The notes: generated by a model from the letters alone, not told the origin. A stretch of 64,000 nucleotides of DNA from Minisyncoccota bacterium (GCA_018063165.1 JAGOQU010000001.1:35809-99808), one strand, 5' to 3'; positions 7,097 through 63,227 are shown, counted from the first letter of the stretch. Made by a program: numbers and translations.

Positions 7097-7172
7097 GCCG
7101 CTTTAGCTCAGTTGGTAGAGCAACGGTTTTGTAAACCGTAGGTCCACAGTTCGAATCTGTGAAGCGGCTCCA
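7097..7172 (+). tRNA. tRNA-Thr (anticodon TGT), CCA encoded
   Basis: Hand-folded cloverleaf. Acceptor GCCGCTT/AAGCGGC, D-arm GCTC/GAGC, anticodon stem ACGGT/ACCGT with loop TTTGTAA, T-arm CACAG-TTCGAAT-CTGTG, 3' TCCA. Confidence 0.85.
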
Positions 7173-7215: not shown

Positions 7216-7908
7216 ATGATTGATACAAAAAAATATATATTAACTTTTTTAATCACATTTTCAATTTTTGTGACAGCTTTTTTTGCGTCAACTTTTTTTT
7301 CTGATAAGAGGGTTGAGAATGTTAAATCAATACAAGATACTATTGCTATTGATATTTTGTCGAGCGAAACACAGTTCGATCTTTTAAAAGAAGTTCCATG
7401 TTCAAATGTTAATGACAGCAGTCTTTCTTCAGAACTTTCGACGCTTGGAGATAAACTTTCTCATACAGAAAATGAAAGAGGGAAAGATGATGATGATGTG
7501 ATCTATCTTAAAAAATATTATTCACTTCTTCAAATTAAAGATTACATACTTTCAAAAAAACTTGTAGAAAAATGTGGAGCAGGGAAGAAGCCTGTTTTTA
7601 TCATTTATTTTTATTCAAATCAAGGAGATTGCTCTGAGTGTACACGAGAAGGGTATGTGCTTACACGCTTAAGAGAGATATACCCCGATCTTCGTATTTA
7701 TTCTTTTGATTATAATTTACCACTTTCAGCAATAGATTCTATGAAGAAGATTTATCGTATTAAAGAAAATCTTCCTGCTCTTGTTATAGAAGATGAAACA
7801 TATACAGGGTTTAAAACTCTTGAAGAATTAAGTTCTCTTTTACCTGCTACACTTAAAATGTCGACAAGTACTATTACAACCTCGACAACTACTAAGACTA
7901 AGAAATAA
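7216..7908 (+). CDS. membrane-anchored protein with a thioredoxin-like CxxC motif (CSEC)
   Basis: N-terminal TM helix. Segment KPVFIIYFYSNQGDCSECTREGY resembles a thioredoxin-fold active site. Family assignment uncertain. Confidence 0.4.
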   Translation: MIDTKKYILTFLITFSIFVTAFFASTFFSDKRVENVKSIQDTIAIDILSSETQFDLLKEVPCSNVNDSSLSSELSTLGDKLSHTENERGKDDDDVIYLKKYYSLLQIKDYILSKKLVEKCGAGKKPVFIIYFYSNQGDCSECTREGYVLTRLREIYPDLRIYSFDYNLPLSAIDSMKKIYRIKENLPALVIEDETYTGFKTLEELSSLLPATLKMSTSTITTSTTTKTKK

Positions 7909-9217: not shown

Positions 9218-9979
9218 ATGCAAGGACACATACACCCAATTAATTTAGCAATTTTACAAATTACAGATATTTTTTCAAAGATGGGTTTTAATACAGTGGA
9301 TGGTCCAGAACTTGAAAATGAGTGGTATAATTTTGACGCACTGAATGTTCCTAAAGATCATCCTTCGCGTGATATGCAAGATACATTTTGGATTAAAGAT
9401 AAGAAAGGTGTTGATAAATTTGGTGAGTCTATGGGGTATGTGCTTCGTACACAAACGAGTAATATGCAAATTCGTACAATGGAAAAACATGTTGCAGAAA
9501 ATTTACCTTATCCTATTGCTATATGCTGTCCTGGAAAAGTATTTCGTAATGAAGCAACAGACGCAACACATGAAGCTCAATTTTTTCAAGTAGAGATGCT
9601 GTATGTTGCTAAGGATGCATCACTTGCTATGATGATTGGTGTTATTGAAAAGTTTTGTTCTGATTTTTTTGGTGGCGAGCTTGTTGTTCGTCTTCGTTCA
9701 AGTTATTTTCCTTTTGTGGAACCAGGTAATGAGATAGATATGCAATGTTTTAAATGTAAAGGAAATGGTTGTAATATTTGTAAACAAACAGGATGGATAG
9801 AACTTGGTGGTGCGGGTATGGTTCATCCAAAAGTTCTTGAAGCTGGAGGTATTAATCCTCGAGAATATAAAGGCTTTGCATTTGGTTGGGGAATAGACAG
9901 GATGGTGATGCTTAAATATAGTGTTGATGATGTCAGACTTCTTTATAACGGTGACCTACGTGTAGTAAATCAATTTTAA
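9218..9979 (+). CDS. pheS: phenylalanine--tRNA ligase alpha subunit (core only, with a CxxC-x4-CxxC insert)
   Basis: Class II aaRS motifs: [49 protein letters not shown]. Confidence 0.85.
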
Positions 9980-10404: not shown

Positions 10405-12786
10405 ATGAAATTTTCAAAAAATTGGTTACAAGATTATATAGATGAGACACTTCCTTCTAATGAAGTAATTGCAGATACACTTAACAAAAAAGCGTTTGAA
10501 GTTGAAGAAGTTATTACCCTTGATGACGATACTGTTTTTGATATTAAAATACTTCCTAACCGTGCACATGACGCTCTTGGTCATCATGGTATGGCGTATG
10601 AACTTTGTTCATGTTTTGGTTTTACATTTAAGCCTGATATTCGTGATAAAGAAAATGATACTTTTTTAAATAAACATATCCCTACTGTTGTTATTAATAT
10701 TGAAAATGAAAAAGCGTGTACGAGATTTATGTCTGTGCAGATAGATGGAGTAACCGTTGGCGAAAGTCCTGTGTGGTTACGAAAAAGACTAGAAGCAATA
10801 GGTCAGCGTAGTATTAATAATATTGTTGATATTACTAACTATGTACAGTTTGCACTTAATAAGCCGATGCACGCATATGATGCAAGACGTATACAAGGTG
10901 GTTTAATTGCGCGCTTCGCGCGTGCTTCCGAGTCTCTTATGACACTAGACGATAAGTCGATCGTGCTCGATGAACAAACTCTTGTAATAGCAGATGATGA
11001 AAAGGTGCTTGGTCTTGCAGGAATAAAAGGGGGGAAGTTTAGTGGAATACAAGCAGATACTACGAGTGTTATACTTGAGAGTGCTAATTTTGATCCAGTA
11101 CTTATACGAAAGACTGCACAAAAATATAATCTTAAAACAGATGCATCGAAGCGTTTTGAAAATGGTATAGCTAATAATCTTATTGTTGAAGGTCTTCATA
11201 TGACTGCCAATCTTATACAAGAAGTTTGTAAAGAGGCAAAAAGAGGTCTTGTTACGGATGTATATCCAAAAAAAGACACCCCATACTTTGTTGGTATTTC
11301 TAAGAATGAATTAAATGCAATTCTTGGAACATCATACACAGATGAGGATATACAAAAAACACTTGTGCAACTTTCACTGCCATTTGAAATTATTATTCCA
11401 GAAACATACATTAAGGAAACGTATCCAACACTTGTAGGAGCTGGCTATAAAAACCCATCATCAATGCGAGAAGATGCGCCTAGGGTGTTTAGCTGTTCTT
11501 CGTTAATAAGTTATCTATATAAAGGTATCTGGATGCCAAGTGTCTCTATTGATAAATATGTTTTTTCAAAAAAAATCTCAAAAGAAGAATTACAATTTGG
11601 TGATCTTGTTTTTGCTAATTCAGGTGAAGGAAAAATACGTTATGAATCAGTAGAATTTTTGAGAGGTACAAAAGTGCCAGAAGGTGTTGATCATGTGGCT
11701 ATGTATATAGGTGACAATACAATATTGCACGCAACTAAAATAAAAGAAATGACACTGGTGGAGTCGTTTGAAGAGTTTGCGGCAGGTCGTACTATTGTTG
11801 GATATGGAAGGATAGTAGAAGATTTAAAAGAAGAGAGATATGTTGTTCGTGTACCGTCGGTACGTCTTGATATTCGTATAAAAGAAGATGTAGCAGAAGA
11901 GATAGGTAGAATACTTGGATATGAAAAATTAGTTCCTGTGTTACCACGTCTTAATCATGTAGGTCTTCTTCATAAGAGAATGTATTATGAAAATAAGATA
12001 CGGGAGATATTAGTTGAAAATGAGTTTTCAGAAGTTATTACGTACACATTTGGCAATGAAGGTGATGTTGCAATTGTGAAAGGGTTAGCTGATGATAAAG
12101 AAAAATTACGTAATTCACTTAGTAAAGGATTGCTTTCGTCACTGGCACTTAATCTCTATAATGCACCTCTTTTAGGACAAAAGACTATACAGCTTTTTGA
12201 GTTTGGTAATGTATTTACTATTGATCAGTATTCAGGAGATAAACGTACCAGTGTAGAAAAAAGATATTTTGGTCTTGCTATAGACGATGGAGCAAAGAAA
12301 AGTAGTTTTACAGAAAATGTTGAAATGATGCTTTCTGCAGTTAAGCGAGCTCTTGGTGTAAAAGAAATAGAGTACACTACTATTTCAGCTAAGCCGTATG
12401 TTATTGAACTTGATTTTGATACACTGATAGCACAATTACCTGAACCATCTGTATATGAAAAAGCTTCTTTCGTGTCTCTATCTCCTGTTAGTTACAAATC
12501 AGTATCGTCTTATCCGTTTATTACCCGTGATATTGCTGTGTGGGTACCTGATACTGTCACATGGGAAAGTATCTATACTATTTGCAATAAAGTGGGTAAT
12601 CCTCTTGCTCGTCGTATCGATCTTTTTGATACGTTTTCTAAGGAGATAGAAGGAGTAAAGAAAACTTCGTACGCGTTTCGTTTGGTATTCCAAAGTTATG
12701 AAAAGACACTTACTGATGAAGAAGTAAATGAGTATATGGAACCATATTATACATCTCTTAAAAAAGAAGGCTACGAAATACGATAA
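10405..12786 (+). CDS. pheT: phenylalanine--tRNA ligase beta subunit with an NlpC/P60-like insert in the B5 domain
   Basis: B3/B4 domain (HAYDARRIQGGLIARFA, GLAGIKGG). B5 domain (FVGISKNELNAILG...VRVPSVRLDI). Core (EEIGRILGYEKL). C-terminal FDX-ACB (FITRDIAVWVP...AFRLVFQS). Confidence 0.85.
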   Translation: MKFSKNWLQDYIDETLPSNEVIADTLNKKAFEVEEVITLDDDTVFDIKILPNRAHDALGHHGMAYELCSCFGFTFKPDIRDKENDTFLNKHIPTVVINIENEKACTRFMSVQIDGVTVGESPVWLRKRLEAIGQRSINNIVDITNYVQFALNKPMHAYDARRIQGGLIARFARASESLMTLDDKSIVLDEQTLVIADDEKVLGLAGIKGGKFSGIQADTTSVILESANFDPVLIRKTAQKYNLKTDASKRFENGIANNLIVEGLHMTANLIQEVCKEAKRGLVTDVYPKKDTPYFVGISKNELNAILGTSYTDEDIQKTLVQLSLPFEIIIPETYIKETYPTLVGAGYKNPSSMREDAPRVFSCSSLISYLYKGIWMPSVSIDKYVFSKKISKEELQFGDLVFANSGEGKIRYESVEFLRGTKVPEGVDHVAMYIGDNTILHATKIKEMTLVESFEEFAAGRTIVGYGRIVEDLKEERYVVRVPSVRLDIRIKEDVAEEIGRILGYEKLVPVLPRLNHVGLLHKRMYYENKIREILVENEFSEVITYTFGNEGDVAIVKGLADDKEKLRNSLSKGLLSSLALNLYNAPLLGQKTIQLFEFGNVFTIDQYSGDKRTSVEKRYFGLAIDDGAKKSSFTENVEMMLSAVKRALGVKEIEYTTISAKPYVIELDFDTLIAQLPEPSVYEKASFVSLSPVSYKSVSSYPFITRDIAVWVPDTVTWESIYTICNKVGNPLARRIDLFDTFSKEIEGVKKTSYAFRLVFQSYEKTLTDEEVNEYMEPYYTSLKKEGYEIR

Positions 12787-26478: not shown

Positions 26479-26565
26479 GGAGGCGTCGCATAGCGGTCTA
26501 GTGCACTACCTTGGAAAGGTAGCGACGGGGTAACTTGTCCGAGAGTTCGAATCTCTCCGCCTCCG
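26479..26565 (+). tRNA. tRNA-Ser (anticodon GGA) with long variable arm
   Basis: Acceptor GGAGGCG/CGCCTCC. Anticodon stem CTACC/GGTAG with loop TTGGAAA. Long extra arm. T-arm GAGAG-TTCGAAT-CTCTC. Discriminator G. Confidence 0.85.
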
Positions 26566-48428: not shown

Positions 48429-48641
48429 ATGTATATAAAAATAAAAGTTGTGACAGATGCTAAACAAGAAAAAATAGAAAAAATTGAAGAAGATTCTTGG
48501 CGTATTTGGGTTACGTTTCCTGCAGAAAATAATGCAGCTAATAGAAGAATTTTGGAAATACTTCATAATTCTTTTGAAGATAAAGCTATTAGAATAGTCA
48601 GTGGACATCATTCACCTTCAAAGATTGTGAGTATCGTCTAA
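48429..48641 (+). CDS. DUF167 (YggU-like) family small protein
   Basis: IKIKVVTDAKQEKIEK...ANRRILEILHNSF...IRIVSGHHSPSKIV matches the DUF167 pattern (..GkAN..l...L......i..GhtS..K). Confidence 0.55.
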   Translation: MYIKIKVVTDAKQEKIEKIEEDSWRIWVTFPAENNAANRRILEILHNSFEDKAIRIVSGHHSPSKIVSIV

Positions 48642-48675
48642 TTTTGATAGAATGATCTGTATTGTTTTAACAAAA

Positions 48676-48751
48676 GCCGTTGTAGCTCAGTTGGTAGAGC
48701 ACGTCATTGGTAATGACGAGGTCAGCAGTTCAATCCTGCTCAACGGCTCCA
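48676..48751 (+). tRNA. tRNA-Thr (anticodon GGT), CCA encoded
   Basis: Acceptor GCCGTTG/CAACGGC. Anticodon stem CGTCA/TGACG with loop TTGGTAA. T-arm CAGCA-GTTCAAT-CCTGCTC. 3' TCCA. Confidence 0.85.
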
Positions 48752-48902
48752 AAAAAGTTGAGCTCAAAAATTACGAAGTGATTTTTGAGTAGACATGAAC
48801 TGCTTCATGTCTAACAGGATTGAATATGAGGTCACGAAACTAATTCTGACAAACGAAGTGAGGAAGTAGTTTCGTGACCAATCCTGCTCAACGGCTCCAA
48901 AA
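48731..48902 (+). repeat. 24-nt direct repeat of the tRNA-Thr(GGT) 3' end (48731-48754 and 48879-48902) bracketing a 124-bp insert with two hairpins
   Basis: CAATCCTGCTCAACGGCTCCAAAA occurs twice. The insert contains TAGACATGAA-CTGC-TTCATGTCTA, GGTCACGAAACTA...TAGTTTCGTGACC, CAGGATTGAA (inverse of the tRNA T-arm) and two AACGAAGTG motifs. Confidence 0.7.
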
Positions 48903-49014
48903 GTTTTTAAAAGAATATAATAGTGTTATCTTTTGTGCGTGGTTATCTAAGATTACTATTGGTATACTTCTTTGTATAAGGAAAAAATAATAAATTAGTT
49001 ACATACTTATATAT

Positions 49015-49281
49015 ATGATTACTACAATAAAATTGATTCAAGTATTTGTGCTATTTTTTGTTTCTTCTGTTTTTATTTTTTATGGTATCATCTGGCTTAG
49101 AAATAGTATTAGATCTAATAAAGACTATGATTTCAAAAACGATGTAAAGCGCACTTTCTTGAAACCTCACTGGAAATATTCTTCTTTTTTAAATGATAAC
49201 AATACAGGAAGAATTGCTCCTATTGTGATTATTATTGGAGGTTTTAGTATACTTATTATTGGATTAATGAAAAGTTTTTAA
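49015..49281 (+). CDS. hypothetical small membrane protein
   Basis: Two TM helices. Confidence 0.35.
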   Translation: MITTIKLIQVFVLFFVSSVFIFYGIIWLRNSIRSNKDYDFKNDVKRTFLKPHWKYSSFLNDNNTGRIAPIVIIIGGFSILIIGLMKSF

Positions 49282-49369
49282 AACATTACATAACAAAAAG
49301 ATAAGTTGCTTCCGTCTACATTTTGATGTATTCTACTCTGTGGAATGTTATTTACTTTAGGAGTATATC

Positions 49370-49990
49370 GTGGGTGTTTTTCTTTCAACATTATTTGATA
49401 AAAGATCAGAGTCTTTGAAATCTTTTGATGTTCTTCCAAAATTTCCAGAAGGGTGTAATTCTTTTGAAGAATTTCTTGATGTTTGTAAAAAACATGAGGG
49501 GAAACCTTTTGTTATGGTGGTTGATAAATCAAGTAAAGAAGGATTTGCTTCAGTCGAAAGATTTTATTTTTTTGGAACAGTCGCTGTTAAAGATGATGGC
49601 TATTTTGGTTTAAAATGTTTTACACCAAGAATGATTAGTACATATATACCTTTTTTCTTTCATGAAATACATGCTATAGATATAGGTATTGACGACTCTC
49701 TCCCATATGAGTGTAAGATCGCCTCTATGTCGTTTGATATAGAGTTTTTTGAAACAATGCTTGTCGAACATTTTTGTCCTTATTATCCAATTGTTCTAAA
49801 AAATCGTGAACATGATTTATACATGATGACACTTCTTGGATATGTACATGTGCTTACTGAGTCAATGAAGCATCATCCTTTTTTATTACTTAATAAAGAA
49901 ATGAATGCTATTGTATCTTTTTTAGAAAGAAAAGATAAAGAAAGCAAAGACAAAGACAAGGAAAAAAAAGATAAAAAAGTACCTGTGTGA
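49370..49990 (+). CDS. hypothetical protein (GTG start per track) with a Lys/Asp-rich tail
   Basis: ORF only. Confidence 0.4.
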   Translation: MGVFLSTLFDKRSESLKSFDVLPKFPEGCNSFEEFLDVCKKHEGKPFVMVVDKSSKEGFASVERFYFFGTVAVKDDGYFGLKCFTPRMISTYIPFFFHEIHAIDIGIDDSLPYECKIASMSFDIEFFETMLVEHFCPYYPIVLKNREHDLYMMTLLGYVHVLTESMKHHPFLLLNKEMNAIVSFLERKDKESKDKDKEKKDKKVPV

Positions 49991-50069
49991 TTTTAAAATC
50001 CAAGCTATACATGCTTGGATTTTTATATAACAGTATCGAATTGTTTATGATAGAATGGTTTAATACTTA

Positions 50070-50142
50070 GCCAGAGTAGCTCAGTTGGTAGAGCATCTCA
50101 CTCGTAACGAGAAGGTCGTGAGTTCGATCCTCGCCTCTGGCT
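50070..50142 (+). tRNA. tRNA-Thr (anticodon CGT)
   Basis: Acceptor GCCAGAG/CTCTGGC. D-arm GCTC/GAGC. Anticodon loop CTCGTAA. T-arm GTGAG-TTCGATC-CTCGC. Discriminator T. Confidence 0.8.
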
Positions 50143-50318
50143 CAGAATAAACGAAGTGTTTTTGAGACAGAGGAGAAATCAAACTGCCGATTAGCAAATC
50201 GCGTCGAGAGACGTAACTTTTTCGTCGAGGATCGAATACGGGTCGGAAAAGCTTCTCGAGCAGAGCGAGAGCTTTTGTGACAGATCCTCGCCTCTGGCTC
50301 AGAATAAACGAAGTGTTT
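50126..50318 (+). repeat. 36-nt direct repeat (tRNA-Thr(CGT) last 17 nt plus 19 nt downstream; 50126-50161 and 50283-50318) bracketing a 121-bp GC-richer insert
   Basis: GATCCTCGCCTCTGGCTCAGAATAAACGAAGTGTTT occurs twice. The insert begins with a degenerate inverted copy of the tRNA 3' half (TGAGACAGAGGAGAAATCAAACT against revcomp TGAGCCAGAGGCGAGGATCGAACT) and contains hairpins around palindromic AAGCTT and CTCGAG. Confidence 0.7.
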
Positions 50319-50467
50319 GATAGATACGAAAAAATAATTAGCTTTTCAGTAAAATACATTAGGAGATGTAGTTTTTTTAAGACCCAAATAAAAAGGGGTG
50401 GTAATATTTTATTGATTACTGAATACAAACAAAAACGTCACTCATTTTGAGTGACGTTAGTTGATGT

Positions 50468-50938
50468 TTATAAGAAAATTTTTTTTAAAGTGTAATCAAG
50501 TACTTTTGCGTGCGGTAGTAATATTGGGAATCTGCTACAAGGAACACCTTTCCATAAATAATCTTGTAAATCTTGTAGACTAAAAAGTTTATTTATTAGT
50601 GTTTCTTTACCATCACATATTCTTTCATACATCTGTTCGAAAGATTCTACCTCACAAACAAAAACATGCTGATGGTGTGTGTAGTTATGGTTATCACGTG
50701 AAGGTTTGTCTACTACAAGTACAGGGTGCATTTCTTTAGCTTTGATATTTGTCTCTTCTAACAGCTCTCTATGTGCTGCTTGTTCAGGTATTTCATTGCG
50801 TTCAACACCACCACCAGGTATTCTCCATTGTATATTTCTCCATCTGTCTGAGTGTGTGAGAGGTATAAAAATAGTACCGTCTTTTGCTACGCACAAAGCT
50901 ACTATAAGTACAGCTTTTTCTGTGGAATGATCATTCAT
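50468..50938 (-). CDS. NUDIX hydrolase
   Basis: Nudix box GGGVERNEIPEQAAHRELLEETNI. Confidence 0.75.
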   Translation of the reverse strand: MNDHSTEKAVLIVALCVAKDGTIFIPLTHSDRWRNIQWRIPGGGVERNEIPEQAAHRELLEETNIKAKEMHPVLVVDKPSRDNHNYTHHQHVFVCEVESFEQMYERICDGKETLINKLFSLQDLQDYLWKGVPCSRFPILLPHAKVLDYTLKKIFL

Positions 50939-57871: not shown

Positions 57872-58132
57872 TTATGTTTCTTTTTGTAGAGTATTCTTAA
57901 TAAGTGTTTCTTTTTCTTGTCTTGTAAGTCTTTTTATTTCTGCTTCACGACTACGTGCTTCTTTATATGTGTTATGTATTTCGTGATAAGTAAGAGACAC
58001 AGGTCTTCTTATTTTAGTGTAATGAGCACCACTTTTTAAAGTATTGTGTTCGTGTATTCTTTTTATTAGATTTGAAGTTGATCCTGTATAAAAAGTTCCA
58101 TCATTGCACGTTAGTATATAAACATAGTACAT
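57872..58132 (-). CDS. GIY-YIG nuclease-superfamily small protein (UPF0213-like)
   Basis: YYVYILTCNDGTFYTGSTSNLIKRIHEHN (GIY...YIG plus conserved R/E). Confidence 0.75.
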   Translation of the reverse strand: MYYVYILTCNDGTFYTGSTSNLIKRIHEHNTLKSGAHYTKIRRPVSLTYHEIHNTYKEARSREAEIKRLTRQEKETLIKNTLQKET

Positions 58133-58773: not shown

Positions 58774-59136
58774 TTTTTTTGTTGAGATTTTATTTTCTTT
58801 AACTCTAAATTTTATAATTTTTGTTATAAGTGTATACGGTAAAGGGGCGTCTATTTTAAATTGAACGGATCCTTTTGCGAGTTTGTATGGAGACAGTTCT
58901 TTTTTGAATGCTTCTATAGCAGATGGGGTAGGGTAGAAACCTATATGTTTTTTGTACCCACCAAAATGAACTAGGTTGCCATGTAATACAAATGTTGGTA
59001 TGCCGTATTTTATTGTTTCTTGTGCGCCAGGTGCAGATTCCTGTACTGTCTTTCTGAGTTGTTGTAAGATATTTTGAACATCAATTGGGAATGTTGCTAT
59101 ATAGGAATCAATAGAAAGTGATGTATTTTGTTTCAT
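58768..59136 (-). CDS. DUF1801 (YdhG-like) domain protein
   Basis: VQNILQQLRKTVQESAPGAQETIKYGIPTF...KKHIGFY pattern. Confidence 0.5.
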   Translation of the reverse strand: MKQNTSLSIDSYIATFPIDVQNILQQLRKTVQESAPGAQETIKYGIPTFVLHGNLVHFGGYKKHIGFYPTPSAIEAFKKELSPYKLAKGSVQFKIDAPLPYTLITKIIKFRVKENKISTKKL

Positions 59137-59166
59137 ATTTAAAGTTTTGTTATCTGTGTGCTATTT

Positions 59167-60093
59167 TTAAACAATAAATCCTTTAAGTGTTTGAAGTGAT
59201 ATTTCAAATTCTTTTAATTTTTCTTGCATGACTGGGGGAAGTGTTAGTGATTCTAACATCTTCTTTTGTTCACTGATTGAATGTACTAGGTGTGCAAAAA
59301 GTCTTTTTTCTATAGATGTGATTTCTTGATTGTTGTAATAGAGGTCATTTGTGAGTTCTGCTAAATCTTTACTTTCTATATTTAAATAAAATACTGGTAT
59401 GTTTCGTGCGGGTGATCTGACAACCTTTTTTTCTTTTAAAGAAACACCGTATTTTGCGCGCGTGCCACCTAGTACTGCACTTTTTTTAATTTTCTCAATT
59501 TTTTTTGACGCACCTCTGTTCCTGTCTCCTTCATTCTCAAGAACTTCATCAAAAGCACATATGATAGCACCTGTTTCTTTGTCGAGAATGAGATTATCTA
59601 TTCCATTTTTATAGTCATCAAATATAGATGTTCTCACAACAAGAAAACGTTCTTTAAGAATTTTGTGCAATAGTCCTGTTATCGCCATTTCAGCTTGGTT
59701 ACTTTTACTAACTTCTTTATTTTCGCGATGTTTTGCTACTATTCCTTCTACGGTGTCTATTCCATGAGTGTTTTTATAGAATATTTGAGTGTTAGGAACA
59801 TCAGCTGCAGAGTTGAGTCTGTCTAGTGCATATACGGTTTCTTCGTCATTATGTATATCCTCTTTTTCATATATACCACCTAGCTCACGATCAAATGGTG
59901 TTGTGTTTATGTGTAATGAAGAGTCTATAAGATTTTGTATTCCATATTTTTTTTCTAGATCTTTATTTATATCTTCTGCATTACGAGACATAACACGTAA
60001 CAATTTTCCAAAAGGGGTCATTTGTTTTTCGTTTGTTGAACGAAATGTTTCTTTAGAAGATAAAGAAGATGATGCATGTTCTTGATTTTTCAT
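59167..60093 (-). CDS. hypothetical protein (308 aa)
   Basis: ORF only. Confidence 0.4.
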   Translation of the reverse strand: MKNQEHASSSLSSKETFRSTNEKQMTPFGKLLRVMSRNAEDINKDLEKKYGIQNLIDSSLHINTTPFDRELGGIYEKEDIHNDEETVYALDRLNSAADVPNTQIFYKNTHGIDTVEGIVAKHRENKEVSKSNQAEMAITGLLHKILKERFLVVRTSIFDDYKNGIDNLILDKETGAIICAFDEVLENEGDRNRGASKKIEKIKKSAVLGGTRAKYGVSLKEKKVVRSPARNIPVFYLNIESKDLAELTNDLYYNNQEITSIEKRLFAHLVHSISEQKKMLESLTLPPVMQEKLKEFEISLQTLKGFIV

Positions 60094-60142
60094 AATACTA
60101 ATAAGTATACATGAAAATGCACTCTATTTCTTTATTGTGTTG

Positions 60143-60213
60143 CTGGGGTACAAGGGCTCGAACCTCGATTAACAGTTCCAGAAACTGCTGTCCTACCATT
60201 AGACGATACCCCA
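60143..60213 (-). tRNA. tRNA-Gln (anticodon CTG)
   Basis: Reverse complement TGGGGTATCGTCTAATGGTAGGACAGCAGTTTCTGGAACTGTTAATCGAGGTTCGAGCCCTTGTACCCCAG. U1-A72 as in bacterial tRNA-Gln. Anticodon loop TTCTGGA. Confidence 0.8.
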
Positions 60214-60514
60214 ATATTTTATAAATTCTCTCTGTATTTATTGTCCTGAGTAAAGACATTGTCCTACCCCTCAAGAATGCACCAAGTATGAATCTGTTGA
60301 TTCAACTGCGATTTCAAAAGATTGATTACAATCTAAGAAATCGGGAGCATTAGACGATACCCCAATATTTTATAAATTCTCTTTGTATTTATTGTCCTGA
60401 GTAAAGACACTGTCCTACCCCTCAAGAATGCACAAAGTATGAATCTGTTGATTCAACTGCATTTTCTATAAATTAAGTACAATTTAAGAAACGGGAGCAT
60501 TAAGACAGTATCAC
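60197..60514. repeat. tandem direct repeat, about 151-bp unit in 2 copies plus a diverged partial third; each unit is the tRNA-Gln 5' 17 nt plus its upstream promoter-like region
   Basis: Copy 1 at 60197-60347 and copy 2 at 60348-60497 are near-identical, with a few substitutions and a more diverged tail. A partial third copy begins CATTAAGACAGTATCAC at 60498. Confidence 0.7.
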
Positions 60515-60710
60515 TAGTAATATGTATATTTTACTTTTTATAAAGTATCAGGAGATGATACCATAATTTTGTATTTTTTTCCAGAGTGTTTTTACTTAAT
60601 GTGATTGATAAAAAAGACAAAAGATATATAGTTGCAATGCTTTTAATGGAGTGTATATGTGGATTGCTTACGTATATTTAGACGTATCGTTGCTATACTA
60701 AAAGTATATT

Positions 60711-63227
60711 ATGGGCAAAATTCTACCTAAAAGAAAATACTTCAAATCAACCATATATCGCCCCAACTTTGATGTCGGTTCCCATATCGATAATGTTAAA
60801 TATTCTTTGGAGCATTTAATTTTTTCTAATGCAAAAGAAACAGAAAGTAATCTTCTTAAAAAAAGAATAAAAATAGTTGCTAGTATTACTGTGCTTCTTA
60901 TGGTGGTTAGTTCTTTCTTTTCTCCAAAAGGTAAAGCTGAAATAGCAACATTTTACCCGACAGCATGTCTAGGTGGATGGAATAATCCTCATCATGCAGA
61001 AGGTGAACCACAAGTTATTTCTAATAGTAATGAAAGTGATTTTGATGGTACAAATTCTGCATTATTACATGCAAGCACAAGTGCTGATATATATTGTGGT
61101 AATTTTGTTGGGTCTATAGAAAAAAATACAAAGCCAGTTAAGATGCTAGTTTCTTTTTCTTGGAGTAAAAATAGTGATACAGCATTAGTGAAAAATATTT
61201 CAGAAGAAGTTTCTTCTTCTACGGATATGGGGAACGTAGCCTCGACAACTGATATTTCACTTGAACTTTCTACAACCACACAAGAAATTAGCACTAGTAC
61301 AGATGCGATACTCACTGGTAGTAGTACAGCTTCAACTACACAAGAGATAGATATAGCAACAACTACAGATATAGAAAAAAAGATTGATGGTGTTTCTTTG
61401 GTTAATAAAGTAATAGACGCTGTTTCGGATGCTTTTAGTTCTTTATTTAGTAACAATAATGATTCAAAAGTTAATACTAGTACAACGACAGAAGTAGGCT
61501 CTAGCACAGATCAAGTAATTAGTAATACAGATAACATTGCTACTACTACAATTCAAATTGAAGATGTAAAAGCGTCTACAACAGAAATAAATATACAAAA
61601 TGAATCTTCTGTAGAAACAAACTCACAAAAAACAGATACTGTAGAAGAGCAGACAGTTTCTCAGGATACCGTACCTGTTCAAGAAATAACACCAACACCT
61701 ACTCCTGTAATACAAGAGGCTAGTGTAGAACCTTCACAAGAACAAGCTCCTGAACCAGCTCCTGTCTCTCTCTTTAATTCTTTAATAGAAAAAATTAGTA
61801 CAGCTTTTGTTAAAAAAGTGTTTGCTGAAGAAATAATTGATGTAGCAGAAAAGAATACACCGAAAGACCTTTCTTCTATAGAAACTATAAACACAAATGA
61901 AGCAAGTTCAACCAGTGAAGAAATGAAAGACATATCTCTTTTAATTCCAGAGATAGATAATAGTTCTTCTACGATACAAGAAAGTACTTCTACTGATGAT
62001 TCTGCATTCTCTACATCTACTGAAGAGATTGCTGAGTTATTTCAGAATGATTTTCTTGAAGTTTTGTATACGTTTGATGGTATTACTTGGTTTAGTCTAG
62101 GAAAAGTTAGTGAACAATCCATGAAATATAGAACATTTGAAATCCCCGTAACAGCTTCTACCTCATGGGAAGATATGAGTAAGTTACAATTAAAAGTTGC
62201 ATCTATTGAAAGAAAGGTTGCTAACCCAGCTGTGTATTTGGATGGTATAAAAGTAGAAGTATTATACGAGTCTACTGTGACACATGAGCATCCTGATTTT
62301 GTGCGTGACACCATTCTTCAAGATGAAGTTGTGGGGAATATACGTATTATTCGTATTATTAATAACGATACAAATTTAGAAGAAATATGGTATTTACATC
62401 AAGAAAGTGTAAGTACAACCACTGTAGAAACAGTAGCGACTTCTACAGATAGTAACGCAACAACAGATAACGCAACTTCTACAGAAGTTATACCAGAAAC
62501 CTCACAAATAATGGATAATGCTTCTTCTACAAATACACAAAATACAAACATAGATGGTATAGCAACAACGTCCGATAGAGTTATCAGGCCTAATAGTTTA
62601 AAAAACACTTGGGTAAAACTCGATGTTGAAGATGTTTCCTCAAAAGATATTACCGAAATTGTTAAAGATATAGAAATAGAAGAAGAAAAACAAGAATTTA
62701 TTATTCCTGATTTTACAAAAGATTTTATTAAAAAAATACAAGGAAGCTTTTTACATGCTGTTGTGGTTCAAATAGAGCAAGAGGGTAAAGATAGTTTATG
62801 GCTTTTTGATATAGAAAAAAATACGGAAGAGAAAATAGATAGTTCAGGTAAGGCAACATTTTCAAAAACATATCCGTTTGGTATGAAAGATGAAACCGTT
62901 TTCTGGTTATCAGAAGATAAAACTATTGTTTTTAGTTATAATGTGATAACAAAAGTAATTGATCAAAAAGAGATACCACCATATGATATTTCTTTGGGTG
63001 AAAGAGGTGTTGTGTTCTTCGATACTATTCCTTGGAAAGTTATCGTAGGATCTGATCAGTTTTCTTTCTTTTCAGAAGAAACAGGAGAAGTATTTTCTGA
63101 TGATAATTTAAATGTTGGGGAGGCTTTTCGTATTAAAGAAAAATTAGATACCATTTTAAAAAAGGAAGATTTAGAGAATCTTAATTTTGTAACAGATACA
63201 ATAACTGACACAGTAACAGAAGAATAA
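60711..63227 (+). CDS. large membrane-anchored Ser/Thr-rich surface protein (838 aa), hypothetical
   Basis: N-terminal TM helix (IVASITVLLMVVSSFF). About 350 aa of S/T/E-rich low complexity (SSTD, ATTT repeats). More ordered C-terminal region. Confidence 0.5.
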   Translation: MGKILPKRKYFKSTIYRPNFDVGSHIDNVKYSLEHLIFSNAKETESNLLKKRIKIVASITVLLMVVSSFFSPKGKAEIATFYPTACLGGWNNPHHAEGEPQVISNSNESDFDGTNSALLHASTSADIYCGNFVGSIEKNTKPVKMLVSFSWSKNSDTALVKNISEEVSSSTDMGNVASTTDISLELSTTTQEISTSTDAILTGSSTASTTQEIDIATTTDIEKKIDGVSLVNKVIDAVSDAFSSLFSNNNDSKVNTSTTTEVGSSTDQVISNTDNIATTTIQIEDVKASTTEINIQNESSVETNSQKTDTVEEQTVSQDTVPVQEITPTPTPVIQEASVEPSQEQAPEPAPVSLFNSLIEKISTAFVKKVFAEEIIDVAEKNTPKDLSSIETINTNEASSTSEEMKDISLLIPEIDNSSSTIQESTSTDDSAFSTSTEEIAELFQNDFLEVLYTFDGITWFSLGKVSEQSMKYRTFEIPVTASTSWEDMSKLQLKVASIERKVANPAVYLDGIKVEVLYESTVTHEHPDFVRDTILQDEVVGNIRIIRIINNDTNLEEIWYLHQESVSTTTVETVATSTDSNATTDNATSTEVIPETSQIMDNASSTNTQNTNIDGIATTSDRVIRPNSLKNTWVKLDVEDVSSKDITEIVKDIEIEEEKQEFIIPDFTKDFIKKIQGSFLHAVVVQIEQEGKDSLWLFDIEKNTEEKIDSSGKATFSKTYPFGMKDETVFWLSEDKTIVFSYNVITKVIDQKEIPPYDISLGERGVVFFDTIPWKVIVGSDQFSFFSEETGEVFSDDNLNVGEAFRIKEKLDTILKKEDLENLNFVTDTITDTVTEE

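Follow-up and report, generated by a model that had tools for sequence, protein, structure and literature searches.

The 64,000 nucleotides of Minisyncoccota DNA analysed here, hereafter the window, contain a tRNA-Gln(CTG) gene that is preceded by a tandem array built in part from copies of its own 5' end. The genomes of the CPR/Patescibacteria are small and tightly packed, yet three of the five tRNA genes in the window carry partial copies of themselves in structured units; the GC content is approximately 32%, and the names given to homologues of a neighbouring protein put the organism in Candidatus Pacebacteria/Paceibacterota, a lineage of the CPR. What is this array, and how did it arise? 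Is it, as an original prediction made from the sequence had it, a duplicated promoter region that provides stacked promoters or partial tRNA decoys? Or is it the product of a local slip in replication, of the insertion of small cassettes, or of selection on the RNA transcribed from it? Here we investigate the array in the window and in related genomes, and conclude that it is most likely a relic at the level of the DNA and not a designed promoter stack.

The predicted 151-bp tandem repeat of about 2.1 copies is present. Tandem Repeats Finder (TRF) places it at 60197-60502 with a period of 151, 2.0 copies, 92% matches, no indels and a score of 526, and a repeat search within the window returns a gapless pair (60197-60340 and 60348-60491, 92%). 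The copies lie head to tail, with CATTA microhomology at the unit boundaries. Each unit opens, as had been described, with the first 17 nt of tRNA-Gln, since the exact 17-mer at 60197-60213 occurs again as psi-b (Table 1). The third copy, said to be truncated and diverged, is both: a decayed 17-mer, psi-a, is all that is left of it, and 60499-60720 aligned to the unit scores 14 against a shuffle mean of 13.5, so a third full unit is not detectable past the 17-mer.

Read in the sense of the tRNA, the order of the parts is psi-a, E-a, R-a, psi-b, E-b, R-b and the intact tRNA, where psi denotes a pseudo-start, that is, a copy of tRNA nucleotides (nt) 1-17, and E a structured element described below. 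R-b begins with the variable 3' hairpin of E (TGAATCAACAGATTCA...CTTGAGGG), continues with GTAGGACA at 60260-60267, which is identical to nt 18-25 of tRNA-Gln, and ends in an AT-rich stretch, TTTATAAAATAT, that abuts nt 1 of the tRNA. The intact tRNA-Gln(CTG), in which CCA is not completely encoded, is identical at 72 of 72 positions to the tRNA-Gln of L007. (L-numbers are labels for fetched metagenome contigs or loci, from relatives or from the same organism.)

Table 1. Parts of the tRNA-Gln array in the window, the promoter upstream of it, and the relatives' loci with the same layout.
Feature	Position	Strand	Evidence or remarks
tRNA-Gln(CTG), functional copy, array-proximal end	60142-60213	-	ARAGORN; Rfam RF00005, 57.7 bits
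R-b, 91 nt	60214-60304	-	Array partition, alignment to tRNA, fold
E-b, canonical 43-nt core CTCCCGATTTCTTAGATTGTAATCAATCTTTTGAAATCGCAGT	60305-60347	-	CM R1, 72.6 bits, E = 2e-17
psi-b, perfect copy of tRNA-Gln nt 1-17	60348-60364	-	17/17, exact repeat
R-a, 91 nt	60365-60455	-	3/91 positions differ from R-b
E-a, older diverged E	60456-60497	-	CM R1, 51.6 bits; 8 substitutions and 1 deletion relative to E-b
psi-a, decayed copy of nt 1-17, AGTGATACTGTCTTAATG	60498-60515	-	12/17 identical plus 1 indel, in array register
Only sigma-70-like promoter on the tRNA strand	60555-60583	-	TGGAAA, 17-nt spacer, TATCAT, TG before the second hexamer
Loci with pseudo-start and E: L007, L040, L043/L037, L045, L047, L050, L064, L067, L068, L072	upstream of tRNA-Gln		

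Could the array be an error of assembly, a repeat that has been collapsed or mis-joined? Of four short contigs from this organism, three stop here: they terminate in the tRNA or at the first repeat edge (window positions 60169, 60171 and 60211), which is the behaviour expected at a repeat. On the other side, a contig from an independent metagenome assembly (JAHZTR010272565.1 of GCA_020054605.1, L002) covers 59061-61623 at 99.96% identity with 0 gaps and so crosses the whole array, homologous arrays are present in other species, and the two units differ at 12 positions, which makes them distinguishable. An artefact is therefore scarcely credible. Beyond the two units seen, further identical units may have been collapsed in the short-read assembly.

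The differences between the two units are not evenly spread. Psi-a and E-a together differ from their counterparts at 15 of 60 positions, against 3 of 108 for R and psi-b (Fisher p = 1.7e-5); for E alone the count is 9 of 43, and for R alone 3 of 91 (p = 0.002). All of the change is on the distal side, as E-b is the family consensus and psi-b is identical to the tRNA. The proximal unit, with its perfect 17-mer and canonical E, is young, and the distal psi-a and E-a are old; psi-a is probably the original gene start. The fold energies are -12.7 kcal/mol (z = -5.3) for E-b and -5.2 kcal/mol (z = -2.1) for E-a. Some of the changes in E-a preserve pairing, as in its P2 helix, AAATTG/TAATTT. Several histories fit this pattern: a second invasion or refreshing by E beside the working gene, rescued via recombination with the older unit; conversion that homogenised the block of R and the 17-mer; or selection on the proximal leader. 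The substitutions between units are of mixed types (C/T, T/C, C/A, G/A, A/T and T/G). We rejected the repeat pair of a diversity-generating retroelement, as mismatches confined to adenines are absent.

Simple tandem duplication predicts head-to-tail copies of one contiguous segment, which are found, and even divergence without an older layer, which is not. A single slip of the replication machinery over the tRNA 5' end and its native upstream DNA, with no special element involved, would explain the orientation of the copies, the CATTA microhomology and a copy number of 2.0-2.1, which is typical of a single duplication. It would not explain the mosaic, distal-only divergence, where one duplication and uniform drift thereafter would leave changes throughout, nor the older layer represented by the decayed third 17-mer. 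It is also at odds with two findings set out below, namely that the unit includes a dispersed element and that the layout of fragment and E recurs in at least 10 other lineages. These two contradict slippage as a complete explanation, and we regard it as very improbable. A slip or an unequal crossover may have been the last step, from one unit to two.

The original prediction took the part of the unit beyond the 17-mer for the upstream region of the gene, with a TATAAA element just before +1. The TATAAA is there, at -10 to -5 relative to nt 1 of the tRNA. A sigma-70 start directed by it would fall within the tRNA, so it is too close to start a complete one. A consensus promoter scan found no promoter inside the 151-bp units, and the one on the tRNA strand lies upstream of the whole array, its end approximately 38 nt upstream of psi-a; this gives no support to stacked promoters. 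The TG before its TATCAT resembles the extended -10 style seen, on direct reading, upstream of other tRNAs in the window. A promoter just upstream of the pseudo-start is also present in L007, L050 and L064, and in L040 and L067 R itself contains an extended -10. Nor are the fragments likely to serve as partial tRNA decoys, because they have no anticodon arm, T arm or 3' acceptor strand. Psi-b and the first bases of E-b could form a weak terminator-like hairpin (60363-60344). On the far side of the array and divergent from it, 60711-63227 on the plus strand encodes a Ser/Thr-rich protein of 838 aa with no Pfam match, preceded by a promoter-like site at 60605-60632; no such protein is on record.

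If not promoter DNA, what fills the rest of the unit? Synteny with a neighbouring 308-aa protein led to few tRNA-Gln loci, since among its 78 homologues only 3 of approximately 34 relatives fetched have tRNA-Gln nearby, and the element was found by a motif scan instead. The lead came from L037 and L007, where a copy of tRNA nt 1-17 is followed by CTCCCGATTTCTTAGAT... upstream of tRNA-Gln; scanning metagenome contigs for that motif gave 35 contigs. The shared element, E, has a 43-nt core composed of CTCCC, the helix P1 (CGATTTC/GAAATCG), TT, the helix P2 (AGATTG/CAATCT) with a loop of TAAT or TACT, three junction bases and GCAGT. With its variable 3' hairpin the full element is approximately 53-80 nt. 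Over 23 distinct sequences, 96.7% of the cells in the two helices are paired, and both sides have changed in 7 of the 13 pairs; none of 500 shuffles did as well, and shifted registers collapse. E is thus a genuine structured family. A covariance model built from the alignment (CM R1) gives two hits and no more in the 64 kb of the window, each of them within the array, and 46 hits in 382 kb of fetched loci. The 43-mer of E-b, the family consensus, has identical copies in L041, L042, L046 and L051. With only two copies in 64 kb, E is not proliferating in this genome.

These results do not support the view that the remaining 134 bp are simply upstream or promoter DNA carried along by a local slip, for 43 nt of them are a dispersed element. 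In Rfam 15, tRNA alone was matched in 60000-60800 at E <= 10, and in the other contexts of E nothing was matched beyond tRNAs and one group I intron. Viral contigs contained no exact match to the E motif, and a phage origin was set aside on this result; keyword and sequence-string searches of the literature returned no description of E. E would appear to be a hairpin element of MITE/REP type without a match in Rfam 15 or in the literature searched.

In the window's pseudo-copy E lies between tRNA nt 17 and 18, in the D-loop, between the two conserved Gs, and the sequence that follows it aligns to the tRNA beginning exactly at nt 18. As nt 1-17 precede E and nt 18-25 come after it, E interrupts sequence derived from the tRNA. 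The same layout of pseudo-start and E is found upstream of tRNA-Gln (CTG or TTG) in at least 10 loci of related Paceibacteria (Table 1), where the intact tRNA-Gln lies 60-110 nt further along. In 8 of 11 loci the tRNA sequence is picked up again at nt 18 once E has ended, and L050 still has nt 18-30 and 38-50 past E (p = 0.002). In L045/L059, E comes after nt 22 of the pseudo-start and not after nt 17. The pseudo-starts agree with the acceptor of their own lineage (TGCGGGA in L047, TGCCCGA in L050). Such recurrence, together with the mosaic divergence of the units (by the Fisher test above), is not what a simple local duplication would leave.

Tandem arrays at tRNA-Gln are known from the window, L043 and L045. 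L043 has at least 1.7 identical units, its contig ending within one. L045 has three perfect 22-nt starts that separate two units with different E subtypes, their E and R approximately 35% different by eye. Duplication and drift are insufficient for the L045 pattern, which independent cassette insertions or selection on the fragment would fit. Other insertions were seen in these pseudo-starts. In L007 (~1810-1850) and L050 (~9690-9720) a small hairpin unrelated to E sits in the pseudo-start at the same place in both, after nt 10 (ATCG|...|TCTAATG). In L050 and L068 the pseudo-anticodon loop also carries insertions; the stems are kept and the loops expanded. L008 has a tRNA-Gln without E. At ~1425-1470 of that locus, approximately 85 nt upstream of the tRNA-Gln and right before a GC-rich terminator hairpin, is GTATCGTCT, a 9-nt match to tRNA nt 5-13 that may be the remnant of an older pseudo-start.

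E is not confined to tRNA-Gln. For about 10 of the 24 non-Gln copies the site is an apical loop, 5-8 nt in, and the hairpin that carries the loop is perfect, GC-rich, terminator-like and 9-20 bp long. E has also inserted into itself: a copy of a second subfamily lies exactly between AGATTG and TACT of a first-subfamily copy, with no target duplication visible at AGATTG|E|TACT. As this composite is found in four flanks (L053/L069, L057, L061 and L073), the composite itself has spread. Outside tRNA loci the orientation of E relative to the flanking genes is mixed, approximately 5 sense to 6 antisense, which argues for an element acting at the DNA level and against a function in mRNA. At its 5' junction CTCCC is preceded by G[T/A/C]AGG in roughly every second copy and by WWTG in others; the CTCCC and GCAGT that flank the palindrome are not complementary to one another, and the long stems around some copies could be either host hairpins or terminal inverted repeats. 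In L053 the tRNA 5' half that bears E is no copy of the adjacent tRNA-Ser, so E is able to sit in a dead tRNA gene that was not copied from its neighbour. No transposase or recombinase was found by Pfam beside the window array or any copy of E examined; the neighbours of the array include NUDIX, TrmD, MgsA, a Pif1-like helicase and GIY-YIG, among others.

Some further features of these contexts were recorded. At 57872-58132 on the minus strand of the window, 2 kb from the array, is an 86-aa ORF with only a GIY-YIG nuclease domain (Pfam E = 2.5e-16). In L049, 1429-3008 (= L060), three copies of E, two of them tandem, flank a RhuM-family gene that adjoins the HsdM methylase gene of a type I restriction-modification system. 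In L065 (~100-250) and L057 (~930-1110), the loop that holds E belongs to a different conserved sequence with several hairpins (GTCATTCCCGCG ... CGGGAATCCAG ... CTGGATCCC ... GGGATGAC) that has no Rfam match.

Which known elements does E resemble? REP and REPIN sequences are GTAG-tagged extragenic palindromes mobilised by RAYT transposases (PMC3733652, PMC3116915). E is like them in being a small, non-coding, imperfect palindrome that is intergenic, occurs in either orientation, has conserved bases outside the stem and is non-autonomous. It differs from them in lying in the apical loops of other hairpins, nesting within itself and being linked to tRNA fragments, in its low copy number here (2 in the 64-kb window), in the absence of a RAYT beside the copies examined, and in its conservation across species, since a REP family is specific to its lineage. 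A second comparison is with MITEs and with tiny dispersed repeats whose insertion sites are hairpins, such as the small dispersed repeats of cyanobacteria. Like these, E is very small, has no ORF, forms a dispersed family divided into subfamilies and shows nested insertions, and its many related non-coding copies are likewise found in varied contexts. Unlike MITEs it shows no terminal inverted repeats of the usual kind, no visible target-site duplication at the nested insertion and no known parent IS, and its host belongs to the CPR. In Thermoproteales archaea, non-canonical tRNA introns transpose among tRNA loop positions. Those introns, like E, are short structured insertions at D-, anticodon- and T-loop positions, whereas E is found in truncated pseudogenes beside an intact copy, in a bacterial host, with no evidence of splicing.

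The tRNA-Thr genes of the window provide a second view of the same phenomenon. It had been claimed that all three tRNA loci of this stretch carry partial copies of themselves, from the 3' end at the Thr genes and from the 5' end at Gln, and exact repeats of 17 nt (Gln), 24 nt and 36 nt (Thr) bear this out. At tRNA-Thr(GGT) (48676-48902) the 3' end, 48731-48754, is copied exactly at 48879-48902 after a 124-bp insert. At tRNA-Thr(CGT) (50070-50318), 50126-50161 is repeated at 50283-50318 (36/36 nt) after a 121-bp insert. This 36-nt copy comprises the region from the T-loop to the 3' end and 18 nt of downstream flank, and an inverted 11-mer of the T-arm lies at 50226-50236. Both Thr copies begin in the T-loop, the mirror image of the Gln case. 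The remaining two tRNA genes of the window, tRNA-Thr(TGT) at 7097 and tRNA-Ser at 26479, have no partial self-copies.

The Thr(GGT) insert and copy together are predicted to fold into a very stable cloverleaf with a four-way junction (-61.3 kcal/mol, z = -8.9). In L062 an identical tRNA is followed by 2.1 tandem copies of a 166-bp unit (11484-11839) to which this insert is homologous, with compensatory changes in the hairpins; the farthest distal fragment there has decayed. No similarity of the Thr(CGT) insert to the tRNA or its upstream region was detectable. In 48500-50600, Rfam at E <= 10 gave tRNA matches only. We also asked whether the Gln unit is related to the two Thr inserts, and rejected this, finding no similarity on either strand. 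In other genomes E abuts distal 3' fragments of tRNA-Glu (L056), tRNA-Arg (L054) and unnamed tRNAs (L044 and L063). The tRNA positions at which hairpin elements were seen are the D-loop for Gln and the T-loop for Thr, Arg and Glu. Carrying a partial self-copy beside a tRNA gene is thus a property of the clade, with a hairpin element always at the junction of the distal fragment. An association with replication polarity was dropped: the window's three copies are on the same side of their tRNA on the leading strand, whereas at other loci the GC skew of the tRNA-sense strand may be positive or negative.

Direct repeats of a tRNA end on either side of foreign DNA are the classic signature of integration, and integrase-mediated insertion leaves fragments of the tRNA gene as attL and attR (PMC9897764). 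In such insertions, as in the array, the repeat flanks the insert, the intact gene is on one side, the distal fragment decays and tandem accretion is possible; the 17-nt Gln and the 24-nt and 36-nt Thr repeats all have this arrangement. The units might accordingly be mini-cassettes without an integrase, each consisting of E, R and tRNA nt 1-17, similar to a cis-mobilizable element or to the cassettes of integrons, and inserted into the tRNA gene by a recombinase encoded elsewhere through site-specific or short-homology recombination, a proposal we judge unlikely. Each unit would bring a replacement gene end and leave the old end behind as a fragment, so that arrays would grow beside the working gene by repeated integration. 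Much agrees with cassettes: the clearly different units that the perfect starts of L045 separate, the exact 36-nt repeats around the unrelated insert at Thr(CGT), the diverged distal Thr fragment of L062 that retains an encoded CCA beside a working copy without one, the original-looking promoter upstream of the distal fragment, and the constant adjacency of a hairpin element to that fragment. Against them, the Pfam search of neighbours found no integrase gene in or beside the window inserts, which are 121-134 bp and have no ORF; inserts across the loci are only 121-166 bp. The portion copied is the 3' one at both Thr loci, as expected of an att site, but at Gln it is the 5' end, starting at nt 1, and tRNA-targeting integrases are not known to use that end. 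The tRNA sequence also continues collinearly past the junction element (nt 18-25 here, nt 18-50 in L050), which a cassette does not need. E occurs, moreover, in hairpin loops that have neither a tRNA fragment nor a target duplication, and the repeat lengths vary (17, 22, 24 and 36 nt).

Another possibility is that the pseudo-start and E form a functional RNA leader, selected in cis for the processing, stability or attenuation of the tRNA-Gln precursor, with the tandem copy a recent duplicate. The core of E is identical at 43 of 43 positions between genomes whose neighbour protein is only 55-75% identical, P1 and P2 covary, and the proximal psi-b and E-b are perfect, in contrast to the decayed copies that precede R-a. 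Given the promoter upstream of the pseudo-start, transcription of the leader is probable, and the G-T pairs in E-a and in the L062 Thr unit lie on the tRNA-sense strand, where the RNA would have G-U. A leader function sits poorly, however, with the two orientations of E outside tRNA loci, with the tRNA-Gln of L008 that has no E, and with the lack of an Rfam match. The pseudo-starts, too, have decayed in L040, L062, L072, L059 and the window's psi-a, and the substitutions in these relatives show that there is no strict conservation. By eye, the lineages do not share a pairing of the pseudo-start with E; a conserved helix of the pseudo-acceptor strand with the CTCCC of E, seen in the window, L045 and L047, was rejected on its absence in L050. 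We consider such a leader improbable, somewhat more so than the cassettes.

The explanation we prefer, although we would put it at about an even chance, is that the array is a tRNA-Gln pseudo-start in two generations, split by the MITE/REP-like E, amplified by recombination and tolerated through 5' processing. E would have disrupted a duplicated 5' part of tRNA-Gln at the D-loop, so that the interrupted copy became a pseudo-start and the intact downstream copy the working gene. Transcription would still begin at the original promoter upstream of psi-a, and a leader of approximately 330 nt would be cut off by RNase P. Since everything upstream of the intact tRNA would be 5' leader that RNase P removes, the insertion would be harmless. 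The repeated 17-mers and R could then have led, by unequal recombination or conversion, to two 151-bp units; alternatively, a second invasion may have been rescued by recombination between copies of E. Several findings run against this explanation. No transposase or recombinase was found beside the array or the copies of E examined, the window has no more than two copies of E, and duplication with drift does not account for the array of L045. The hairpins of E-a and of the Thr(GGT) unit keep their pairing through compensatory and G-T changes, which could also mean selection on an RNA.

The wider pattern may have a similar basis. E-type elements would land in the loops of hairpin-forming DNA, including the D- and T-loop positions of tRNA genes, and an invasion would survive only where the gene end that it cut off was also duplicated. 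If survival requires a duplicated end, a partial tRNA copy would always be found beside an intact gene. We tentatively propose, while thinking it rather doubtful, that the Paceibacteria carry a class of undescribed tiny hairpin elements that specifically invade tRNA loops, with insertion mechanistically coupled to regeneration of the severed end. Units would accrete with the newest proximal and the oldest, decayed ones distal, a polarity like that of CRISPR arrays, and processing would hide the damage. Many tRNA-Gln, Thr, Arg and Glu loci of relatives have structured units of 120-170 bp that end in a duplicate of part of the gene they adjoin. If such a class of elements that invade tRNA loops exists, it would represent a new mode of coexistence between mobile elements and host genes, and possibly a new mechanism of recombination. 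The narrower explanation, if true, would by itself give an uncultured phylum a new family of miniature mobile DNA. It would account for a class of partial tRNA genes that are troublesome in annotation and at which assemblies break, and would mean that essential single-copy RNA genes tolerate invasion because end-processing enzymes discard all that is outside the mature tRNA. CM R1 would then serve as a model of sequence and structure for a census and for finding the enzyme that moves E.

Three minor observations were made at tRNA loci. L044 contains a group I catalytic intron at 14-254 (Rfam, 62.1 bits); ARAGORN finds no tRNA there, yet a reverse-complemented tRNA 3' end and a 3' fragment bearing E are visible, and the tRNA of this locus may be interrupted by the intron. 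Several tRNAs are followed at once by their own 3' acceptor strand and trailer in inverted copy, which gives long perfect hairpins (L062 ~10650-10730, L070 ~7500-7590 and L056 2150-2190); the one after tRNA-Thr(CGT) in L062 is 28 bp, and such hairpins are unusual for terminators. Lastly, there are 10 copies of the octamer ACGAAGTG where 1.2 would be expected, at 48773, 48853, 50151, 50308 and six other sites. The two Thr inserts have four of them, which form the loops or the flanks of hairpins, and the octamer, which contains a C-GAA-G mini-hairpin core, also forms the loop of an E variant in L054.
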